Below, one piece after another: positions 1-7,293 of a DNA stretch of 28,756 nucleotides (positions are counted from its first letter, which is position 1; each line of letters starts with the position of its first letter). The DNA is from a virus (lineage: Duplodnaviria > Heunggongvirae > Uroviricota > Caudoviricetes). The position numbers and the translations under genes were made by a program. The notes beneath the pieces were generated by a model. The model had not been told where the DNA came from. It worked only from the letters and a program-made list of their open reading frames with translations, and did no database searches. The stretch covers positions 1 through 28,756 of IMG/VR virus record IMGVR_UViG_2537561604_000016; one strand, 5' to 3'.

Positions 1-1158
1 ATGCTCACCGTTAAGCAGATTGAAGCAGCAAAGCCGAAAGAAAAACCATACCGCCTACTCGATGGTAATGGCCTGTACCTTTATGTCCCTGTGTCAGGGA
101 AAAAGGTATGGCAGCTTCGCTACAAGATTGACGGTAAGGAGAAAATCCTGACTGTCGGAAAATATCCGCTTATGACTTTGCAGGAGGCAAGGGATAAAGC
201 ATGGACTGCGAGGAAAGACATCTCGGTTGGCATCGATCCGGTAAAGGCGAAAAAGGCTTCGTCTAACAACAATTCCTTTAGTGCAATTTACAAGGAATGG
301 TACGAACACAAGAAGCAAGTCTGGTCAGTAGGGTATGCGACTGAACTTGCAAAAATGTTTGATGACGACATTTTACCCATCATCGGCGGCCTTGAAATTC
401 AGGATATTGAGCCGATGCAACTGCTGGAAGTAATCCGCAGATTTGAAGATCGCGGTGCAATGGAGCGAGCCAACAAAGCACGTAGAAGATGCGGCGAGGT
501 TTTCCGTTACGCTATTGTCACCGGAAGGGCTAAATATAACCCGGCACCTGACCTTGCAGACGCCATGAAAGGATACCGCAAGAAGAACTTCCCGTTTTTA
601 CCTGCCGACCAGATCCCGGCATTCAACAAAGCACTGGCAACATTTTCAGGAAGTATCGTATCGCTCATTGCGACCAAAGTTTTACGCTACACAGCCCTCA
701 GAACAAAAGAGCTTCGTTCCATGCTATGGAAGAACGTCGATTTTGAAAACAGGATTATCACCATCGACGCCAATGTGATGAAGGGACGCAAGATTCATGT
801 GGTTCCGATGTCGGACCAGGTGGTTGAACTTCTCACTACGCTAAGCTCCATCACTAAACCAGTATCAGAGTTTGTTTTTGCCGGACGCAACGATAAGAAG
901 AAGCCAATCTGCGAGAACGCGGTATTGCTTGTGATCAAACAAATCGGCTATGAAGGTCTGGAAAGCGGTCACGGATTCAGGCATGAATTCAGCACGATTA
1001 TGAACGAGCACGAATGGCCTGCTGACGCGATTGAGGTGCAACTAGCACATGCCAACGGCGGATCTGTGCGCGGGATTTACAACCATGCTCAGTATCTCGA
1101 TAAGCGCAGAGAAATGATGCAATGGTGGGCGGACTGGCTTGATGAGAAGGTAGAGTGA
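1..1158 (+). CDS. int: Tyrosine integrase, P4-like family; N-terminus may be cut by the window edge
   Basis: 385-aa ORF with the AKPKEKPYRL..DG.GLYL N-terminal signature of P4-type integrases and a C-terminal catalytic region (GHGFRHEF, LAHANG, RGIYNHAQY) carrying the R/H-x-x-R/H/Y residues of tyrosine recombinases. Stop is TGA at 1156-1158. Confidence 0.85.
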   Translation: MLTVKQIEAAKPKEKPYRLLDGNGLYLYVPVSGKKVWQLRYKIDGKEKILTVGKYPLMTLQEARDKAWTARKDISVGIDPVKAKKASSNNNSFSAIYKEWYEHKKQVWSVGYATELAKMFDDDILPIIGGLEIQDIEPMQLLEVIRRFEDRGAMERANKARRRCGEVFRYAIVTGRAKYNPAPDLADAMKGYRKKNFPFLPADQIPAFNKALATFSGSIVSLIATKVLRYTALRTKELRSMLWKNVDFENRIITIDANVMKGRKIHVVPMSDQVVELLTTLSSITKPVSEFVFAGRNDKKKPICENAVLLVIKQIGYEGLESGHGFRHEFSTIMNEHEWPADAIEVQLAHANGGSVRGIYNHAQYLDKRREMMQWWADWLDEKVE

Positions 1159-1390
1159 CCCACCTTAACTATCGAATGACATAAATCCTTGCAATCCAGT
1201 GCAAAGATTTGTGTGTCTCAGTTTTGTCTAATTGTTCTACTAAAAACATAGTAAAATCGGTAACGGCTGGAAATCGTTCAATACCCGTACTATTGAAGTT
1301 ATCTAAGACAGGAGGTTTATTTAATAAATCACTTTATATAAAGAAGCAATTAATTTAACAATTATAGCTATAAAAAATAAATCTTTCTAA

Positions 1391-1420
1391 AGCCGGAAAC
1401 ACCGGCTATTTTTTGTTAAA
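1391..1420. terminator. Candidate bidirectional intrinsic terminator hairpin at the 3' end of the membrane-protein gene
   Basis: Inverted repeat agccgg-aaac-accggct at 1391-1407 followed by a T-run (attttttgtt) on the plus strand. It overlaps the stop codon of the minus-strand gene ending at 1406. The minus-strand reading is less U-rich. Confidence 0.4.
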
Positions 1421-2440
1421 GAAATAAAACAAACCTGTGGTTGATATAAATATTAAAATAGCCGACATGCCTATTTTAATATAGGGCCAAACAATCATTG
1501 TATTTTTATCACTAACGAATACCATTGCCAAAAAAGCCATCAAACATAACAATCCAAACATAATAGCACTTTTTAAATTAAGTCTCAGACATAGTTCTTG
1601 TGCCACTGTATACATATCAAAGTCAACATTTTTACCCACCCCATTCCCTTTAATTTCACCATTAGAACTCCCACTAGTGCTGTCACTTTCTACATTAATT
1701 ACTTTATATGATAAAAAGTTTGAGTGTTTAAAAAAAGGCAACGTTTTGATATTAAGTGGAATATAAATATCATCATAATCAACAGATGATTCTATAGGAT
1801 TACAATGTGCAATCACAACATCATCAGGACTACAATTTATAAGTAATTTTTTAGAAGCTCCATCAAGATTCGCTACTTTTATATTTATAGTGTACCTATC
1901 ACCATGATATACTTCATAGAAACACCCTTTACTTTGAGGGTTGTATTTCGGAATAACCCTTCTTCCTAGAGAGTCAAGGATACCATCAATAGAAAAAAAC
2001 ATCATATCAGGAAATGCGCACCTAACTTCTTCCACCCTACTTTTCCAGTTGCTATAATAATCAGAATCATTACACTCTATATATTTTAAGAAAAGCCCAT
2101 CATCTCCCTGATTACAAATTTCAGCATTAATAAAATCCCCAAGAATCATCCGAACATGATAAAGTTCGGTCATATCACTCCAGTCAAACGAAATTATTTT
2201 CGCCTTCCTAATTGATTTATGGATCAATTTTTTATTTTCATTCATTGTATTTCCTTGCGAAAAATAAATGAATACATCACTACCAACTATCGCTTGCCGT
2301 TGTTGATAAATGCAAGCCTCAACATATTTCTTTTTGTATCTAAAATGAATGACATCACCTTTTGGCAAACTTAACACCTTGAATATATCAGCTTTATATT
2401 GTTCTCTGGAATCAGAGCTAAACGCTGCCATAACTCTCAT
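1406..2440 (-). CDS. Hypothetical membrane-anchored protein; about 290-aa soluble N-terminal domain plus two C-terminal transmembrane helices; AT-rich cargo gene
   Basis: Long minus-strand ORF. The likely true start is the ATG at 2440-2438, preceded by GGGGAGG at 8 nt, and it overlaps the upstream stop as ATGA (translational coupling). The C-terminus carries two hydrophobic stretches (AIMFGLLCLMAFLAMVFV and MIVWPYIKIGMSAILIFISTTGLFYFF). I recognise no catalytic motif. Visibly AT-rich compared with the tail genes. Confidence 0.6.
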   Translation of the reverse strand: MRVMAAFSSDSREQYKADIFKVLSLPKGDVIHFRYKKKYVEACIYQQRQAIVGSDVFIYFSQGNTMNENKKLIHKSIRKAKIISFDWSDMTELYHVRMILGDFINAEICNQGDDGLFLKYIECNDSDYYSNWKSRVEEVRCAFPDMMFFSIDGILDSLGRRVIPKYNPQSKGCFYEVYHGDRYTINIKVANLDGASKKLLINCSPDDVVIAHCNPIESSVDYDDIYIPLNIKTLPFFKHSNFLSYKVINVESDSTSGSSNGEIKGNGVGKNVDFDMYTVAQELCLRLNLKSAIMFGLLCLMAFLAMVFVSDKNTMIVWPYIKIGMSAILIFISTTGLFYFFNKK

Positions 2441-3141
2441 ATTAGAACCTCCCCGAGTAAACATTCCCAACGAAATTTCTTCAGTTTATATATTTCTAAA
2501 TTATCCCTAATTATTCCATCCTGCTTTGCTTTATCGGCCCAACGATTATGAGGATGTACAGTCCCAACTAACTGCCACCCAGCACCTTTTAAAGATGCGC
2601 CTGTTTCACTGCTTAGAGTATAGGTAATAATTTTTTCTCCTCCCATCATTTTCCAGATTGTGCTACATCTACTAATCAGAAAGGAGCAAGTTCCTTTTGG
2701 AGATTTGTCACTGACACATAATCGTGTAATCTCTGCCGTCACACCATCCATGTACGTTGCAGATACGGGATTTCCAACTATCGCTACACCAACCAATTCA
2801 TCAGAATCTATGTGGTAGGCAGCTATAGCCCATCTGCCCGAATTCCTTGACGTTGGTCGATGGTGTCGATGATAAATAGAAACAAATTCATTTGCTTTTT
2901 TTATCGTTATAGGTTTTACATATAGTAACTTCGCCAAAATCCACACCTTGTAACATGATGGTAATATCATCACAACAATACAAAACTTATTGATTTTTAA
3001 CAACCAATTATAATGCCTAACCCCCATAGCACTACTTATCTTGTCTTCAAAAATCAGCTCGCATCCTGCACAGTTCAGTGCATTACGTTGTAGATCTGTG
3101 TTCTGGTCATTTGTTGACACGCGTACATAGCCAATAAGCAT
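2437..3141 (-). CDS. Chimeric ORF: about 37 N-terminal codons of a Gin/Pin-type serine invertase fused in frame to a roughly 197-aa foreign domain, tentatively GNAT-fold / Mom-like (XF1762-family)
   Basis: ATG at 3141-3139 has a strong SD (AGGGGAG about 7 nt upstream). The first residues MLIGYVRVSTNDQNTDLQRNAL..CAGCE..IFEDK are near-identical to the N-termini of Gin/Hin/Pin as I recall them, after which the sequence is unrelated to invertases. The C-terminal part has the pattern ..HRHH..P....G...........LVGVA.VG.PVS........EI.RL............ITYT...E.G.SL..AGW that I associate with Mom-like acyltransferase-fold proteins; this is a recollection, not a search result. Confidence 0.5.
   Translation of the reverse strand: MLIGYVRVSTNDQNTDLQRNALNCAGCELIFEDKISSAMGVRHYNWLLKINKFCIVVMILPSCYKVWILAKLLYVKPITIKKANEFVSIYHRHHRPTSRNSGRWAIAAYHIDSDELVGVAIVGNPVSATYMDGVTAEITRLCVSDKSPKGTCSFLISRCSTIWKMMGGEKIITYTLSSETGASLKGAGWQLVGTVHPHNRWADKAKQDGIIRDNLEIYKLKKFRWECLLGEVLI
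3031..3141 (-). pseudogene. pin: 5' remnant of a DNA invertase gene (gin/pin/cin family), truncated after about codon 37
   Basis: Only the N-terminal approximately 37 codons, including the catalytic Ser of the YVRVST motif, are invertase-like. No continuation of an invertase reading frame of 60 aa or more exists in any frame downstream. It sits about 56 bp from the left crossover site, as gin does relative to the Mu G segment. Confidence 0.6.
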
Positions 3142-3196
3142 GATCACTCCCCTGAATAAAAACCTGGGATGATGCCAGTTAGCCATTATCTCTGCA

Positions 3197-3223
3197 TTTT
3201 CATAAACGTTGGTTTGGGAGAAG
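3197..3223. repeat. Left recombination site of the invertible tail-fibre segment (gix/pix-like), inverted-repeat partner of 5066-5092
   Basis: ttttcataaacgTTggtttgggagaa resembles the 26-bp gix/hix architecture (two 12-bp half sites around a 2-bp core). The 15-nt core ttggtttgggagaag is exactly repeated in inverse orientation at 5066-5080. Confidence 0.7.
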
Positions 3224-3582
3224 CGGCAAAACGGGATGTGGGAACAGGGGAAAATCAGATACCGGACATGGCCTCTTTTGCCAGTGGTGATGGATGGATG
3301 AAATTACCCAACGGGAAAATCCTGCAATATGGTCGTGGTGCGGTTACGCCGACATTATCGACGCAAACAATGAGAATTACATTCAGCATCCCTTTCCCCA
3401 AAAAAGCGGACTGCGCCATGCTTACTCATTCTGGTGATGGCGGTGCGCCTTTAGGCGCTGGGCGGGGATTCATGATGACCGCAGAAGGCCCAACGTTAAC
3501 CGGCTTTAATTCTGCTTACAGAACGTCATCAACCAGCGACACGGTATCGATGAATTACAGTTGGTGGGCTGTTGGTGAGTAA
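3209..3582 (+). CDS. Alternative tail-fibre C-terminal cassette (silent in this orientation); becomes fused to the constant N-terminal part on inversion
   Basis: The plus-strand reading frame runs through the left crossover site (..FINVGLGE..) without a credible own start and with the same GLGE junction as the expressed fibre. A different C-terminal domain follows, ending at the TAA at 3580-3582. Confidence 0.6.
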
Positions 3583-3602
3583 TTTTATTCAGGGTGATTT
3601 AT

Positions 3603-4046
3603 ATGAACGAATATGTTTATAGCGCAAGGCATAATGCTTTTTTCCCTGTGGATATGATTGATAAATATAAATCAGAGGGATGGGATTTATCAGACGCTAA
3701 GGAAGTAAATCAAAATATTATCAGTGAGTTTATGGCTGAACCGCCACAAGGAAAAATCCGTATTGCCGGAGATGATGGGCTGCCTGCGTGGGCAGATATT
3801 CCTCCACCCACGCATGAAGAACTTATTGAAATTACTGAATCAGAAAGACAGCTACTAATTAACCAGGCCAACGAATACATGAACAGTAAACAATGGCCTG
3901 GTAAAGCCGCTATTGGTCGTCTGAAAGGTGACGAACTGGCGCAATATAATTTGTGGCTGGATTATCTGGACGCACTGGAACTGGTTGATACCTCCAGTGC
4001 TCCAGATATTGAATGGCCTACGCATCCGGCAGTTCAGGCCAGATGA
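3603..4046 (+). CDS. Tail fibre assembly protein (alternative copy, Tfa')
   Basis: ATG at 3603 with GGTGA upstream. The C-terminal region (..LWLDYLDALELVDTSSAPDIEWP..) is homologous to the C-terminus of the convergent Tfa at 4018-4620, the conserved Tfa chaperone domain. It converges on and overlaps the other tfa by 29 bp. Confidence 0.75.
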   Translation: MNEYVYSARHNAFFPVDMIDKYKSEGWDLSDAKEVNQNIISEFMAEPPQGKIRIAGDDGLPAWADIPPPTHEELIEITESERQLLINQANEYMNSKQWPGKAAIGRLKGDELAQYNLWLDYLDALELVDTSSAPDIEWPTHPAVQAR

Positions 4047-4620
4047 CATCCGGCGCGGTGCTGGTATCTGTTGCCGTCACCGCGTCAATGTAATCCAGCA
4101 CGGCGTTAAGTCGGGTGGTTTCTGCCTGCGTCAACTTCCGCCCGGCCTGCAATTTCAGCTGAATCAGACTGATGGAAGCCATTGCAGCATCAATCAGTGA
4201 CTGGCGCTGTGCTTCTGCCGCGTCTACTGCGGCGCTATGCTGTGCCTCAGTATCGGTCACCCATTTCTCACCATCCCATTTATCGTATGGAGATAAAGGG
4301 GCGATAGTGGTTGTATTTTCAGGGTAATCACCCGGAGCTTTGATTTCTTTTGATTCTCCTGTTTCTGTGCTAAAGACGATTTCACCACGATGGTCTGGCA
4401 CATATTCCCATGAGTTAAAATCTGCAGAACGGCAGATTGCATAACCAGTTTTGTATGAGCCAGGAGCATCTAAACAGGAACATGCCGGAATGCCGACACC
4501 CACAGCAAGATATTCAGTTGATGTGAAAATATATTCTCGTGTTTCACCATCATAGTTATAAACCGTAATATTTCCTGCCTGGGTGGCGATAAATTCGTTA
4601 TTTAATACAGCGTAATCCAT
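4018..4620 (-). CDS. Tail fibre assembly protein (Tfa)
   Basis: 200-aa ORF whose ATG overlaps the tail-fibre stop (TAATG). The conserved C-terminus ..LDYIDAVTATDTSTAPDVIWP.. is typical of TfaE/U-type chaperones. Confidence 0.8.
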   Translation of the reverse strand: MDYAVLNNEFIATQAGNITVYNYDGETREYIFTSTEYLAVGVGIPACSCLDAPGSYKTGYAICRSADFNSWEYVPDHRGEIVFSTETGESKEIKAPGDYPENTTTIAPLSPYDKWDGEKWVTDTEAQHSAAVDAAEAQRQSLIDAAMASISLIQLKLQAGRKLTQAETTRLNAVLDYIDAVTATDTSTAPDVIWPELPDA

Positions 4621-5435
4621 TATGCAGCCCTCACGATATAATTAAAGGCAATGTTTCGAGGACGGTTTTCGTTTGCAGTTGGAACAACTCTGGAAGCATC
4701 AAATGTTACTCGCTTTGCATAACCACCTTTAATTGAATCAGATGAAGCATCTCCGATGACGCTGGTTGTAAAAACGCCAGAATCAGAAGGGTAGGTATTA
4801 AACCTGACATCCACTAATGCACCAATTATATTTCGAATGGCATCGCCCTGTGATGAAAGCAAGCTACGGTTAGTATCTATTCCTCTTCCGTCATCCCAGC
4901 CACGAATGAACTCACCACGTAAATCAGGCAATTTATTTGTCGGGTAAGCCTTTGCCAGTTCCGGGTATTCTTCAGCAGAAAAAGCCGCACCGTTGCATTT
5001 CAGCCAGCCTGTTGGCGGAGTGGCTGAAGGCCACGGAACAGGGACACCAACAGGTAATGCAGAGCCTTCTCCCAAACCAAGGTTTTCGAGAGCCGTTCGC
5101 ACAGTGCCATCCGATTTGATATCGCCAAACGGATTCTTGCGGCTCAGGTATTCAACAGCAAACCCCGATTCCAGCAATTCAACAAAACCGGGCAGATCAC
5201 CATTATCAAGCACATCCCGTTGCGTTTTATCACTTACAAACTGGGCCAGAGCTGCAGCAATAAAGCTGGCCTGCCGAATAACCTTATTGACTTGCGCACT
5301 GGATGCTTTCCCTGCTGTAAATCCGGATATAAGCGCAGGCAACGTTTCCCATTCCTCCTGCGACATAACATTGGCATTTCGATCAGTTGCAAACGCTTTA
5401 AAGTCATTTTTCGCCATCAGAGTAATACTCCCCAT
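4620..5435 (-). CDS. Tail fibre protein: constant N-terminal part (5093-5435) plus variable C-terminal part inside the invertible segment (4620-5065)
   Basis: The C-terminal region ..[22 protein letters not shown]...[19 protein letters not shown].. is the classic phage tail-fibre/tail-collar receptor-binding signature. The gene is crossed by the right recombination site. The start may instead be the ATG at 5417, which forms an ATGA overlap with the upstream gene. Confidence 0.8.
5066..5092. repeat. Right recombination site of the invertible tail-fibre segment, inside the tail-fibre gene
   Basis: The reverse complement of 5066-5092 is ctctcgaaaaccTTggtttgggagaag, matching the left site exactly in the core and partially in the flank. 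It encodes the shared ..LGLGE.. junction of the tail-fibre protein. Confidence 0.7.
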
Positions 5436-6097
5436 GCCCCTACATCAAAACCACTGATGAATTCGTTATCCATATCAAAACCAAAAAATTTAGAGCCTTC
5501 CGATGGAGTTTCCACCGAAGGTGTTTCAATGCCCCCCGCCCATACCCCGGCGGCTTTTACTGTTAGATACCCCTGTTTAATTGCCGCAATTAACTCACGC
5601 GATACATCTGAAATATCAGTATCAGGAAAGACCCAGACCGATATCGTCATGTCCTGGTTATCGACTATCTGCATTCGCAGCCCGGATCCTGCTGTTGCAG
5701 CGTCAAGAATTGCTGGAAGCGAATCATTCCGTCCGTCCCAGTTATTAATCGCAATCTTCGCTTTAAGGATGACACGATAAGTTTCATCGCTGAGGTACAT
5801 GTATCCGGAATCAGGATCGTATGGCCCCTGCCATACACCATGATCATATCCAAGCCCGTCGGTATCCCAGCTGAAATAGACACCTGAGATAGGCTGGCTG
5901 ACAACACGGCTACGTCCGATCCACAATCCCAGAATGTCAAGTTGCACACCAACCGCAGAGTCAATATCAAATGCAGTAATCAGCCCTCTGGTGGCCGCCG
6001 CAACATCAATAAGCGGCCGGGTCATCAGATCAACATGTGCAAGAAATTTAGGTTTGGTGGCGTGGTAGTTCGTGATTAGTTCGGTATATTTGCTCAT
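5417..6097 (-). CDS. Tail/baseplate protein, YmfQ-like (DUF2612-type), upstream partner of the tail fibre
   Basis: 226-aa ORF immediately upstream of the fibre gene in the late operon. Position and general sequence character recall e14 ymfQ / Mu gp48-type proteins. Assignment is by synteny and recollection. Confidence 0.5.
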
Positions 6098-7293
6098 GAC
6101 TCCACCGTTATAACGATATTTTCCGGTGTACAGGACGCAGATTCGTTGTATCTGATATCAATGTTTGATGACGACAAAGCCCCCGGGGATTTCCCAATCG
6201 TCAGTTCCTGAATATCGTAATAGCGTGCATTCCCGCCACTCACCACACCAAGATTCGCCGGTGAGTAAATGCGACTTAAAAGGACCGAATCACCAATCAT
6301 CAGACTATTGATATAGTCGGAAATAGCCTGCTGGATCTGCTGCCCTATCTGTGAGGTATAACCCGTAAAAACTTTTAATTTAATCCGGGCATAAACAGGC
6401 ACATCACTAGAGCGCGAGAATTTGATTACATGGGGATTGCCGTATTTATCCGGAACCGTAACGGATGTTGTACCGTGAGTGGATGTCCCCTGGCCTTTAT
6501 TCCCTCTGATAGCCTGAGCAATATCCGTCACATCACCGCCATCCACAATTACAGCAACAGAGTGTGGCGGTAACCCGTTACCGTCCTCCGAACCAGTATC
6601 GTTTTCATAGAGTTTGTGGCGGGTTACACCGGTAACATTAGAAACAGCACCATCCAGTGCTTCAAATGGGGTTATTGATGGCAACGCAACACTTTGCGAC
6701 TGGCGGATACGTAACTCAGCGTCAGTTTCTGCCGGAGTGCCCACAGTGGCTGCAGCAGGATTGGTTACCGAAACCCAGCCACGGGTTGGCGTATTAATTT
6801 CAGTGATAGTTCCAGCCAGCGCCGCCACTGCACCACTGACGGAACATGTTGCGGTCACCATCACTGTACCATCCACGCCTACCACCACTGAAGCAGGCAA
6901 ACGCCATATCACATTATTACTGTCTTTCACGCTGCCATTAATGATGGTTGTTCCGGCAGTTCCTGTAAGAAGCAAATCAACCGTAGAGTTCGTCGCGCCT
7001 TTACGTGAAATACCATTTATTTTCACGTTACTGGTCAGTGCAGCCCCATAGCCGGTTGCCGGTGAAAAACAGTTGTAGACAGTTATCGCCGTATTATTGG
7101 CATCATGAATCGCCAGCGCCATCAGAGCCACCATCTGGCCGTCTTTGCTGTCCGGTTCGAGGTAGGCATCACTACCATAAATCTGCTGAAAATAGCTAAT
7201 CAGGGTGCTGAGTATCGTCTGATAATCAGGCGCACTGATCCCCTCCGCGGTTACCTTTGCAGATAAACCGAGAGAATCAAGGTTCAGAGCCAT
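6094..7293 (-). CDS. Baseplate J-like protein (gpJ / Mu gp47 family)
   Basis: 399-aa ORF in the canonical position between the W-like and fibre-proximal genes. Start and stop overlap the neighbours (coupled operon). Confidence 0.65.
   Translation of the reverse strand: MALNLDSLGLSAKVTAEGISAPDYQTILSTLISYFQQIYGSDAYLEPDSKDGQMVALMALAIHDANNTAITVYNCFSPATGYGAALTSNVKINGISRKGATNSTVDLLLTGTAGTTIINGSVKDSNNVIWRLPASVVVGVDGTVMVTATCSVSGAVAALAGTITEINTPTRGWVSVTNPAAATVGTPAETDAELRIRQSQSVALPSITPFEALDGAVSNVTGVTRHKLYENDTGSEDGNGLPPHSVAVIVDGGDVTDIAQAIRGNKGQGTSTHGTTSVTVPDKYGNPHVIKFSRSSDVPVYARIKLKVFTGYTSQIGQQIQQAISDYINSLMIGDSVLLSRIYSPANLGVVSGGNARYYDIQELTIGKSPGALSSSNIDIRYNESASCTPENIVITVES

Follow-up and report, generated by a model that had tools for sequence, protein, structure and literature searches.

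The DNA analysed here very probably carries a tail-fibre inversion switch of the Pin type (Gin/Cin/Pin/Hin family), in which the pin gene has been destroyed and the cis-acting parts have been kept, so that it could operate only with an invertase from another locus in the cell. The window, that is, the whole 28,756-nt stretch, belongs to a temperate myovirus prophage of the SEN34-like/vB_EcoM-611R5-like type, located at the argW/intS site of E. coli. In the Gin/Cin/Pin/Hin family, inversion is carried out by a serine invertase together with Fis on supercoiled DNA. Briefly, the model proposed for the window starts with the binding of a serine DNA invertase to two 26-bp pix sites; cleavage at their central 2-bp core and rotation of the strands would then invert the 1.87-kb segment lying between them. 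The constant N-terminus of the fibre (approximately 112-118 aa) would be joined either to cassette A, encoding a Collar-type tip and a 200-aa Tfa protein, or to cassette B, encoding a gp53-like tip and a 147-aa Tfa. The late operon would transcribe the joined cassette only, and the progeny phage would carry one of the two receptor-binding tips. With the two sites and the putative enhancer retained and the recombinase gone, the system would come to rely on an invertase supplied from elsewhere in the cell, the candidate suppliers being PinQ/PinR-like or other Pin/Gin-like enzymes of another prophage.

The first piece of evidence comes from the crossover sites. A first-pass annotation of this DNA had claimed a 15-nt inverted repeat embedded in 26-bp gix/hix-like sites, and the re-alignment does place an exact repeat inside two 26-bp sites, with TTGGTTTGGGAGAAG at 3209-3223 and the reverse-complementary copy at 5066-5080; if one mismatch is allowed, both copies lengthen to 20 nt (3204-3223 and 5066-5085). 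In crossover sites of the Gin/Cin/Pin/Hin type, an identical 2-bp core is flanked by two imperfect half-sites of 12 bp each, and this is the layout found in both cases. Site L (3197-3222), beside the remnant of pin, reads TTTTCATAAACG-TT-GGTTTGGGAGAA, with its core at 3209-3210, and site R (5067-5092), within the fibre gene and in inverted orientation, reads TTCTCCCAAACC-AA-GGTTTTCGAGAG, with its core at 5079-5080. As to their identity, the sites match the real hixL in 20 of 26 positions and the Mu gixR in 18 of 26, and are more exactly the pix pair of the e14 element of E. coli K-12, to which each is identical in all 26 positions: site L matches the pinE-proximal pix and site R the one inside e14 stfP. 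On its own the repeat is just slightly unusual (a 15-nt inverted repeat within 2.5 kb turned up in 9 of 200 shuffles), and the assignment is decisive because of the full identity of both sites to e14 pix, not because of the repeat alone. The window contains exactly two copies of the 14-nt pix half-site, inverted with respect to each other, against 0.21 expected when up to two mismatches are allowed; hence, no additional crossover sites, such as those of the Min system of p15B or of shufflons, were found in the window at this threshold.

The segment delimited by these sites (3209-5080, approximately 1.87 kb between the site centres) is the counterpart of the 1797-bp P segment of e14. The constant N-terminal part of the fibre gene lies on the minus strand at 5081-5435, as deduced from the list of open reading frames and their translations. 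The ORF opens at 5435; however, the probable true start is an ATG at 5417, which overlaps the stop codon of the DUF2612 gene upstream, the RefSeq CDS of an identical prophage beginning at the equivalent position. The last 30 residues of this part ahead of the crossover are 90% identical to e14 StfP. In the present orientation it is joined to cassette A, which is therefore the one expressed. Its fibre C-terminus (4620-5066, minus strand) contains a Collar domain (Pfam PF07484, E=2.6e-15), is 61% identical to the C-terminus of e14 stfE', and in a sequence search of the PDB matched short tail fibres and the tip of T4 gp37. The accompanying chaperone gene (4018-4620, minus strand) encodes a 200-aa protein of the TfaE type (Pfam Caudo_TAP, PF02413, E=1.1e-32), 91% identical to e14 TfaE. 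Cassette B, silent in this orientation, lies on the plus strand and is composed of a C-terminus with a Gp53-like_C domain (3224-3582; Pfam PF21882, E=7.3e-13), for which the PDB sequence search gave no match, and a 147-aa Tfa gene (3603-4046; Caudo_TAP, E=2.5e-31) whose product is 54% identical to e14 TfaP. The two Tfa genes are convergent and overlap at 4018-4046.

The initial proposal of two convergent cassettes, each with a distinct fibre C-terminus and its own Tfa, is thus upheld: the C-terminal parts A and B are mutually unrelated (Collar versus Gp53-like_C), and each is followed by one Caudo_TAP gene. The same is true of the proposed exchange in frame and of the reading of the plus-strand cassette through its site. 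The minus-strand fibre ORF (5435 to 4620) is open across site R and reads ..GLGE.. there, the constant part ending in ..ENLGLGE, and the plus-strand frame is open from 3199, crosses site L as ..NVGLGEAAKRD.. and stops at 3582. Inversion of 3209-5080 in silico yields an uninterrupted fibre of 242 aa in place of the current one of 271 aa. By likeness to Mu, P1 and e14, such an exchange may serve to change the host range of the phage.

In Din-type systems a small serine invertase gene lies next to the segment or within it, whereas in the window only codons 1-36 of pin remain (3035-3141, minus strand), as established by tblastn, Pfam and nucleotide comparison. This stub keeps the catalytic Ser9 motif but lacks the DNA-binding domain and the remainder of the catalytic one. 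It is almost identical to pinE of K-12 (105 of 107 nt and 36 of 36 aa), and homology to the intact pinE and gin stops near 3035. In agreement, a tblastn search with Mu Gin matched residues 1-36 only (89%), and the Pfam Resolvase profile was covered only at positions 2-45 of 145. Close relatives possess an intact 184-aa pinE at the same position. No second serine invertase or recombinase was found in the 28.7-kb window by tblastn of Gin. As pin is reduced to a 36-codon stub, the switch is unable to flip on its own. The truncation of pin beside site L had been overlooked in the first-pass annotation.

The 36 codons run in frame into a gene of the XF1762 family, forming a chimeric ORF (2437-3141, minus strand) that matches NCBIfam NF045478 over aa 75-226 (168.9 bits) and Resolvase over aa 3-38, and which appears in RefSeq as a single 234-aa protein (WP_000905006.1). 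The junction marks the event that destroyed pin. Neither for the XF1762-family ORF nor for an ORF of 344 aa was a meaningful PADLOC match obtained that would assign it to a defence system. Kinship between the XF1762-family protein and Mu Mom, suggested by the G-gin-com-mom synteny, was considered and discarded (Pfam score 23.5 against a cutoff of 27.1 bits; BLASTP E=2.1). A plausible, if tentative, extension of the model is that of an orphan switch: the prophage would be functional, its fibre choice would be set by the invertases of other prophages, and the start and promoter region of pin would have been captured, in the event that removed the invertase, to drive a rare two-gene module of the Mom-like XF1762 protein and the 344-aa membrane protein. 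If true, the host range of one phage would be coupled to the prophage content of the cell.

The stub also includes an interval (3055-3120) homologous to the Fis-dependent recombinational enhancer, which in hin, gin and pin is situated near the 5' end of the coding sequence; 64 of 66 positions are identical to pinE, 51 of 66 to Mu gin and 49 of 66 to hin of S. enterica diarizonae. The enhancer of hin comprises 65 bp, is placed about 100 bp from a hix site and has ATTTA and TAATG between two Fis sites (PMC3798978). In the window the interval begins 89.5 bp from the site centre (98.5 bp in hin), TAATG is kept, and two candidate Fis cores (G-N13-C) are found 49 bp apart. The spacing of Fis cores in the literature is 48 bp. 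This homology suggests that the stub may retain enhancer function and bind Fis.

A crucial observation is that the opposite orientation exists in nature. E. coli MEI1A-0323 and MEI2O1-23 carry a near-identical prophage with exactly this segment reversed, and this bears out the invertibility that had been claimed, the breakpoints falling inside the 15-nt repeat. The MEI1A-0323 prophage differs from the window by four SNPs in 25.5 kb plus the inversion: it aligns with 1-3223 at 100%, with 5066-25500 at 99.985% and with 3204-5085 in inverted orientation, and only one SNP (4789) is inside the invertible segment. Moreover, the sequence flipped in silico is identical to NZ_CM149601.1 and NZ_CM149574.1 (100% over 2466 bp). 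The outer half-site bases 3208 and 5081 remain with the flanks in MEI1A-0323, and therefore the exchange took place within 3209-3223. In this genome the constant part continues into cassette B, and the fusion is listed in the annotation as a protein of 236 aa. The difference in orientation could in principle stem from rare illegitimate recombination, RecA-dependent or by replication slippage, at 15-20 nt of inverted identity, or from an assembly artefact, given that segments between inverted repeats can be mis-oriented by assemblers. However, the breakpoints fall on canonical pix sites identical to those with experimentally shown inversion, the two independent MEI assemblies are concordant, and a 15-nt repeat is too short to mislead long-read assembly. 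Repeats of 15-20 nt are also well under the length needed for efficient homologous recombination, and an origin of this sort is considered scarcely credible.

Importantly, MEI1A-0323 has the identical pin truncation junction. Since the truncation is common to the window and to MEI1A-0323, the inversion occurred later than the truncation. For the truncated form, this conclusion is drawn from one clean pair of opposite orientation, the window versus MEI1A/MEI2O1. LH10-b-1 was examined as a second flipped genome with truncated pin and discarded, its locus being rearranged: the cassettes there are different and partial, and an intact recombinase lies at the opposite end. Among homologues with an intact pinE, the clonal isolates MEI1-1023 and MEI2B/MEI3A-1023 are opposite in orientation at the same coordinates, which supports the notion that the switch would be active in them.

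The most likely explanation for the inversion after truncation is an invertase supplied in trans. One pinQ/pinR-like place was detected at the megablast level in each of the six database E. coli genomes that have the truncation junction, these carriers having been ranked to the top with a rare 'tag' sequence and the best place per record being shown. MEI1A-0323 additionally shows two remote matches to the C-terminal portion of pinE, and its pinQ-like and pin-like places are given as counts. For the e14 P segment, inversion by PinQ acting in trans has been reported (PMC12529663). Two other sources were discarded. In MEI1A-0323 the combination of pin 5' end and pix site does not recur in a second close copy, and e14 pinE is thus ruled out in this genome; likewise, the yfhH/tadA site, which in relatives harbours a pinE-positive prophage, is empty.

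These data bear as well on the notion that the locus is a frozen relic, dead since the truncation of pin, with the window and MEI1A-0323 merely preserving two orientations and no inversion taking place at present. The lack of an invertase in the window and of a second close pin 5' copy in MEI1A-0323 would fit such a notion, as would the fact that WAT, PK8568 and 09A19CPO009 match the window at site L, with the gp53-like cassette beside the stub. However, the same junction in opposite orientations with only four SNPs in 25.5 kb demands at least one very recent inversion after the truncation, neither the two sites nor the enhancer-like interval show any damage, and pinQ-like genes are present in every carrier genome. 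A switch that is already dead is consequently regarded as unlikely.

It was also considered that the switch might by now serve chiefly the host, and not the host range of the phage. Here, one orientation would produce a short chimera from the ATG at 3169, an analogue of StfE/StfE2 that blocks the adsorption of other phages. Indeed, the start of the ORF at 3169-3582 (MMPVSHYLCIFINVGLGE...) resembles that of e14 stfE (MPFACYFFIFINVGLGE...), and Kirigo et al. described that StfE2, made by inversion, blocks T2 adsorption (PMC12529663). Against this, the e14 claim comes from one study only, and the prophage, unlike e14, looks complete (its genes include those for terminase, portal, capsid, sheath, tube, tape measure, baseplate and lysis, as well as a Q-like gene), which makes a structural fibre role simpler. 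Furthermore, a scan for promoters and terminators of 2900-5600 gave nothing over the shuffled expectation, with no promoter-like site upstream of 3169. A role in favour of the host is, on balance, rather improbable, even more so than that of a relic, and a phage-borne fibre switch lacking its own recombinase is the reading retained here.

Since the 1980s, the inversion systems of Mu (G), P1 (C) and e14 (P) have served as textbook examples; as a fibre inversion switch, the one in the window offers nothing new in principle, its sites being identical to those of e14. Its value is modest and lies in being a natural case of a switch that has outlived its own recombinase, with a segment that flipped after the loss of pin. 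This flip supports the existence in wild E. coli of the cross-talk between prophage invertases that has been seen experimentally for PinQ on e14. It also calls for caution in annotation: RefSeq lists both the pin-XF1762 chimera and the silent cassette as ordinary genes.

Regarding known systems, the e14 P segment with PinE shares with the window both 26-bp crossover sites (26/26 each), the order of constant fibre N-terminus, cassette, convergent Tfa pair overlapping by 29 bp, cassette and pin promoter region, the TfaE-type chaperone (91%) and the pin 5' end (105/107 nt). A published study places the crossover of the 1797-bp P segment of e14 at the same repeat core (PMC12529663). In contrast to e14, only 36 codons of pin are left in the window and these continue into an ORF of the XF1762 family, the gp53-like tip of cassette B has no relationship to the C-terminus of StfP, the fibre N-terminus differs save for the 30 aa before the crossover, and the segment is slightly longer (about 1.87 kb versus 1797 bp). 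Moreover, the window represents an apparently complete myovirus prophage at argW, whereas e14 is defective and located at icd.

The G segment of Mu has the same architecture and mechanism, with the S/U and S'/U' fibre/Tfa pairs as parallels. The crossover falls within the fibre gene, the invertase gene lies immediately beyond one site, at approximately 67-69 bp from site centre to start codon, and the stub shares 89% identity with residues 1-36 of Gin. However, the sites coincide in only 18 of 26 positions, the G segment is 3 kb long with much larger fibre parts, and Mu gin is intact and followed by com and mom. The H segment of Salmonella, responsible for flagellar phase variation, likewise has 26-bp sites (20/26 to hixL). 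Its enhancer is located within the 5' part of the hin coding sequence (PMC3798978), an interval over which the window is identical in 49 of 66 positions. In contrast, Hin inverts a promoter and not a fibre C-terminus, and hin lies inside its invertible segment. Finally, the P1 C segment with Cin and the Min system of plasmid p15B employ invertases of the same family to swap tail-fibre C-termini; Min does so with six crossover sites and many cassettes, whereas the window has exactly two sites.

The 15-nt inverted repeat claimed in the first-pass annotation is present at its assigned positions, the arm TTGGTTTGGGAGAAG (3209-3223) being the exact complement of 5066-5080, and it grows to 20 nt when one mismatch is allowed. 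On its own, a repeat of this length in a 2.5-kb stretch is just mildly unusual, as 9 of 200 shuffled sequences held one, and therefore it is identity, not length, that decides for the two crossover sites, site L (3197-3222, TTTTCATAAACG-TT-GGTTTGGGAGAA) and site R (5067-5092, TTCTCCCAAACC-AA-GGTTTTCGAGAG). In the proposed alignment to gix- and pix-type sites, both sites match at 26 of 26 positions the two pix sites flanking the P segment of e14 in E. coli K-12, while site R agrees with hixL of Salmonella enterica diarizonae at 20 of 26 positions and with gixR of Mu at 18 of 26. The core common to both sites, TTGGTTTGGGAGAAGG, has been reported as the place of crossover in the P segment of e14, which is 1797 bp long (PMC12529663). 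Within the window there are exactly two copies of the 14-nt half-site, inverted relative to each other; since only two sites are present, a multiple-inversion system is ruled out. A further exact 15-nt inverted repeat, CATTCAAAAACCATC (24330-24344 and 27745-27759, 3.4 kb between), is probably a meaningless chance occurrence, given a random expectation of about 0.35 pairs of this kind per window.

The segment joins a constant fibre part to alternative tips. On the minus strand, the late operon runs from baseplate J through DUF2612 to the fibre ORF (5435..4620), whose probable start, the ATG at 5417, overlaps the DUF2612 stop and is the RefSeq CDS start in an identical prophage. This frame reads ..ENLGLGE/GSALP.. 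through site R into a C-terminal phage tail Collar domain, and is followed by a 200-aa Tfa chaperone (4620..4018, minus strand, Caudo_TAP). On the plus strand, the silent cassette enters at site L as ..NVGLGE/AAKRD.. and encodes a tip with a Gp53-like_C domain, ending at a stop at 3582, and then a 147-aa Tfa chaperone (3603-4046, Caudo_TAP), the two chaperone genes converging with a 29-bp overlap. In silico inversion of 3209-5080 generated an uninterrupted fibre frame of 242 aa that ends in the gp53-like tip. Two convergent cassettes with distinct tips and chaperones, both in frame through the GLGE crossover, are thus borne out as first described. No similarity was found between the two tips; in a sequence search of the PDB, the Collar-type tip matched collar regions of short tail fibres and T4 gp37, and the gp53-like tip gave no match. 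An ATG upstream of the silent cassette creates a 137-aa ORF (3169-3582, plus strand), whose C-terminus is replaced by every inversion. Its counterpart in relatives is named "gp53-like domain-containing protein" in RefSeq, but it is probably not an independent gene and is analogous to the e14 stfE pseudogene.

That the segment is invertible, as had been proposed, is supported directly by its natural occurrence in the opposite orientation. When 3035-5500 was flipped in silico, all 2466 bp were 100% identical to the complete E. coli genomes MEI1A-0323 and MEI2O1-23. Left as it is, this stretch had matches of >99% identity in the collection only in these two genomes, through the inverted interior alone, and no record in the collection was colinear with it at >95% identity. 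Alignment of the whole window to the MEI1A-0323 locus gave three blocks: 1-3223 and 5066-25500 are colinear, the former at 100% and the latter with 3 SNPs, and 3204-5085 is inverted, with a single SNP in the interior (4789). Apart from this SNP, the inverted alignment has mismatches only at 3208 and 5081, the first bases beyond the repeat, which stay with the flanks; the exchange therefore took place within 3209-3223, which fits the expectation for cleavage at the pix central dinucleotide. Separately, a homologous segment with an intact pinE (record positions 3689060-3691175) lies in one orientation in MEI1-1023 and in the other in MEI2B-1023 and MEI3A-1023, soil isolates of equal chromosome length and coordinates that are apparently clonal, an observation consistent with ongoing phase variation of the pinE-intact switch.

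What the first-pass annotation overlooked is the loss of the invertase gene beside site L. In relatives such as TUM1880, an intact 184-aa pinE lies directly left of this site. The pin gene of the window has a normal start (ATG at 3141), and its first 36 codons match K-12 pinE at 36/36 amino acids and 105/107 nt, and Mu Gin at 89%. The homology ends near 3035, and beyond it the frame stays open, leading into a domain of the XF1762 family (NCBIfam, residues 75-226, 168.9 bits), the chimera being a single 234-aa protein in RefSeq. The stub keeps the catalytic serine motif; judging by its sequence, it cannot be a recombinase, because it lacks the DNA-binding domain and, in all, about 80% of the protein. 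No other serine invertase was found by tblastn in the 28.7-kb window.

The stub also retains a putative enhancer. [quoted passage not shown] In the actual hin sequence both motifs lie within codons 17-22, flanked by candidate Fis cores at about codons 8-29. The homologous interval of the window, 66 nt long (3120..3055), falls wholly within the stub. It is identical to pinE at 64/66 positions, to gin at 51/66 and to hin at 49/66, and starts 89.5 bp from the site centre (98.5 bp in hin); the deletion endpoint is some 20 bp past it. With this interval intact, every known cis-acting part of the switch would still be present, if homology is a guide to enhancer function.

Among 5426 complete E. coli genomes, just six share the XF1762-pin junction, two of them being MEI1A-0323 and MEI2O1-23. 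As the window and MEI1A-0323 have this junction in common, the truncation is older than their split; since they also differ by only 4 SNPs in 25.5 kb, the inversion came later than the loss of pin, which implies that a recombinase acting in trans flipped the segment. Gin, Cin, Pin and Hin are classical examples of invertases that can complement one another. With a rare tag sequence used to rank the six carriers at the top of the match table, K-12 pinQ was found at megablast level to have one additional matching place in each (6/6). MEI1A-0323 holds two more places distantly similar to the C-terminal two-thirds of pinE, and has just the one close copy of the pin 5' end with its pix site. PinQ is reported to invert the e14 P segment, which has the same sites, in trans (PMC12529663). 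These pinQ-like and pinE-like places may be regarded as candidates only.

The chimera and a 344-aa ORF, overlapping it by 4 bp, form a two-gene module directly downstream of the pin start (1406-3141, minus strand), which in the six carriers occupies two chromosomal contexts, argW/intS and beside torT. The second product has C-terminal hydrophobic/transmembrane helices and matched nothing in Pfam, NCBIfam or PADLOC. The position of the module mirrors the Mu order G segment-gin-com-mom; the chimera has a weak, sub-threshold Mom-like Pfam match, and BLASTP against Mu Mom was not significant. Beside torT in E. coli LH10-b-1 (3738-7278), the XF1762-pin stub is followed by three fibre cassettes, one full and two partial, and, on their far side, an intact 190-aa recombinase gene, the baseplate genes being deleted; this is apparently an inversion region that has been rearranged or merged. 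In the phage vB_EcoM-611R5 record (ON470588.1, 1-4297), which also holds the host genes tadA, yfhB and yfhH, the "DNA invertase" has only 104 aa, so the family's closest phage record likewise has a partial invertase gene.

The window opens with intS, which in MEI1A-0323 directly follows argW, the CPS-53 attachment site. It further encodes spike, baseplate, tape measure, tube, sheath, head, portal, terminase and lysis genes, with tRNA-Thr (TGT) and tRNA-Asn (GTT) (27374-27529, minus strand) between a Q-like antiterminator gene and the lysis cassette. It is 95.5% identical to Escherichia phage vB_EcoM-611R5 across 74% of its length and is related to Salmonella phage SEN34. For the inversion product of e14 a role in host defence has been proposed (PMC12529663); however, e14 is defective, whereas the window prophage is apparently a complete temperate myovirus, and therefore a structural, host-range role of the switch is the simplest reading.

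By mechanism and sequence, the element belongs to the Gin/Cin/Pin/Hin family as a homologue of the P segment, with the sites, in-frame fusion, paired chaperones and two orientations of that family, a putative enhancer recognized by homology only, and no adjacent invertase gene. Such elements are long known, and annotation of homologous loci extends to thousands of E. coli genomes, 3081 of the 5426 complete ones having a match to the region. The orphaned state, with inversion after the truncation, is a modest wrinkle and not a new mechanism. As in the window, tfaP and tfaE of e14 are convergent with a 29-bp overlap. The minus-strand cassette is of the e14 stfE'/TfaE type (tip 61% and chaperone 91% identical), whereas nothing in e14 corresponds to the plus-strand tip, whose chaperone is 54% identical to TfaP.
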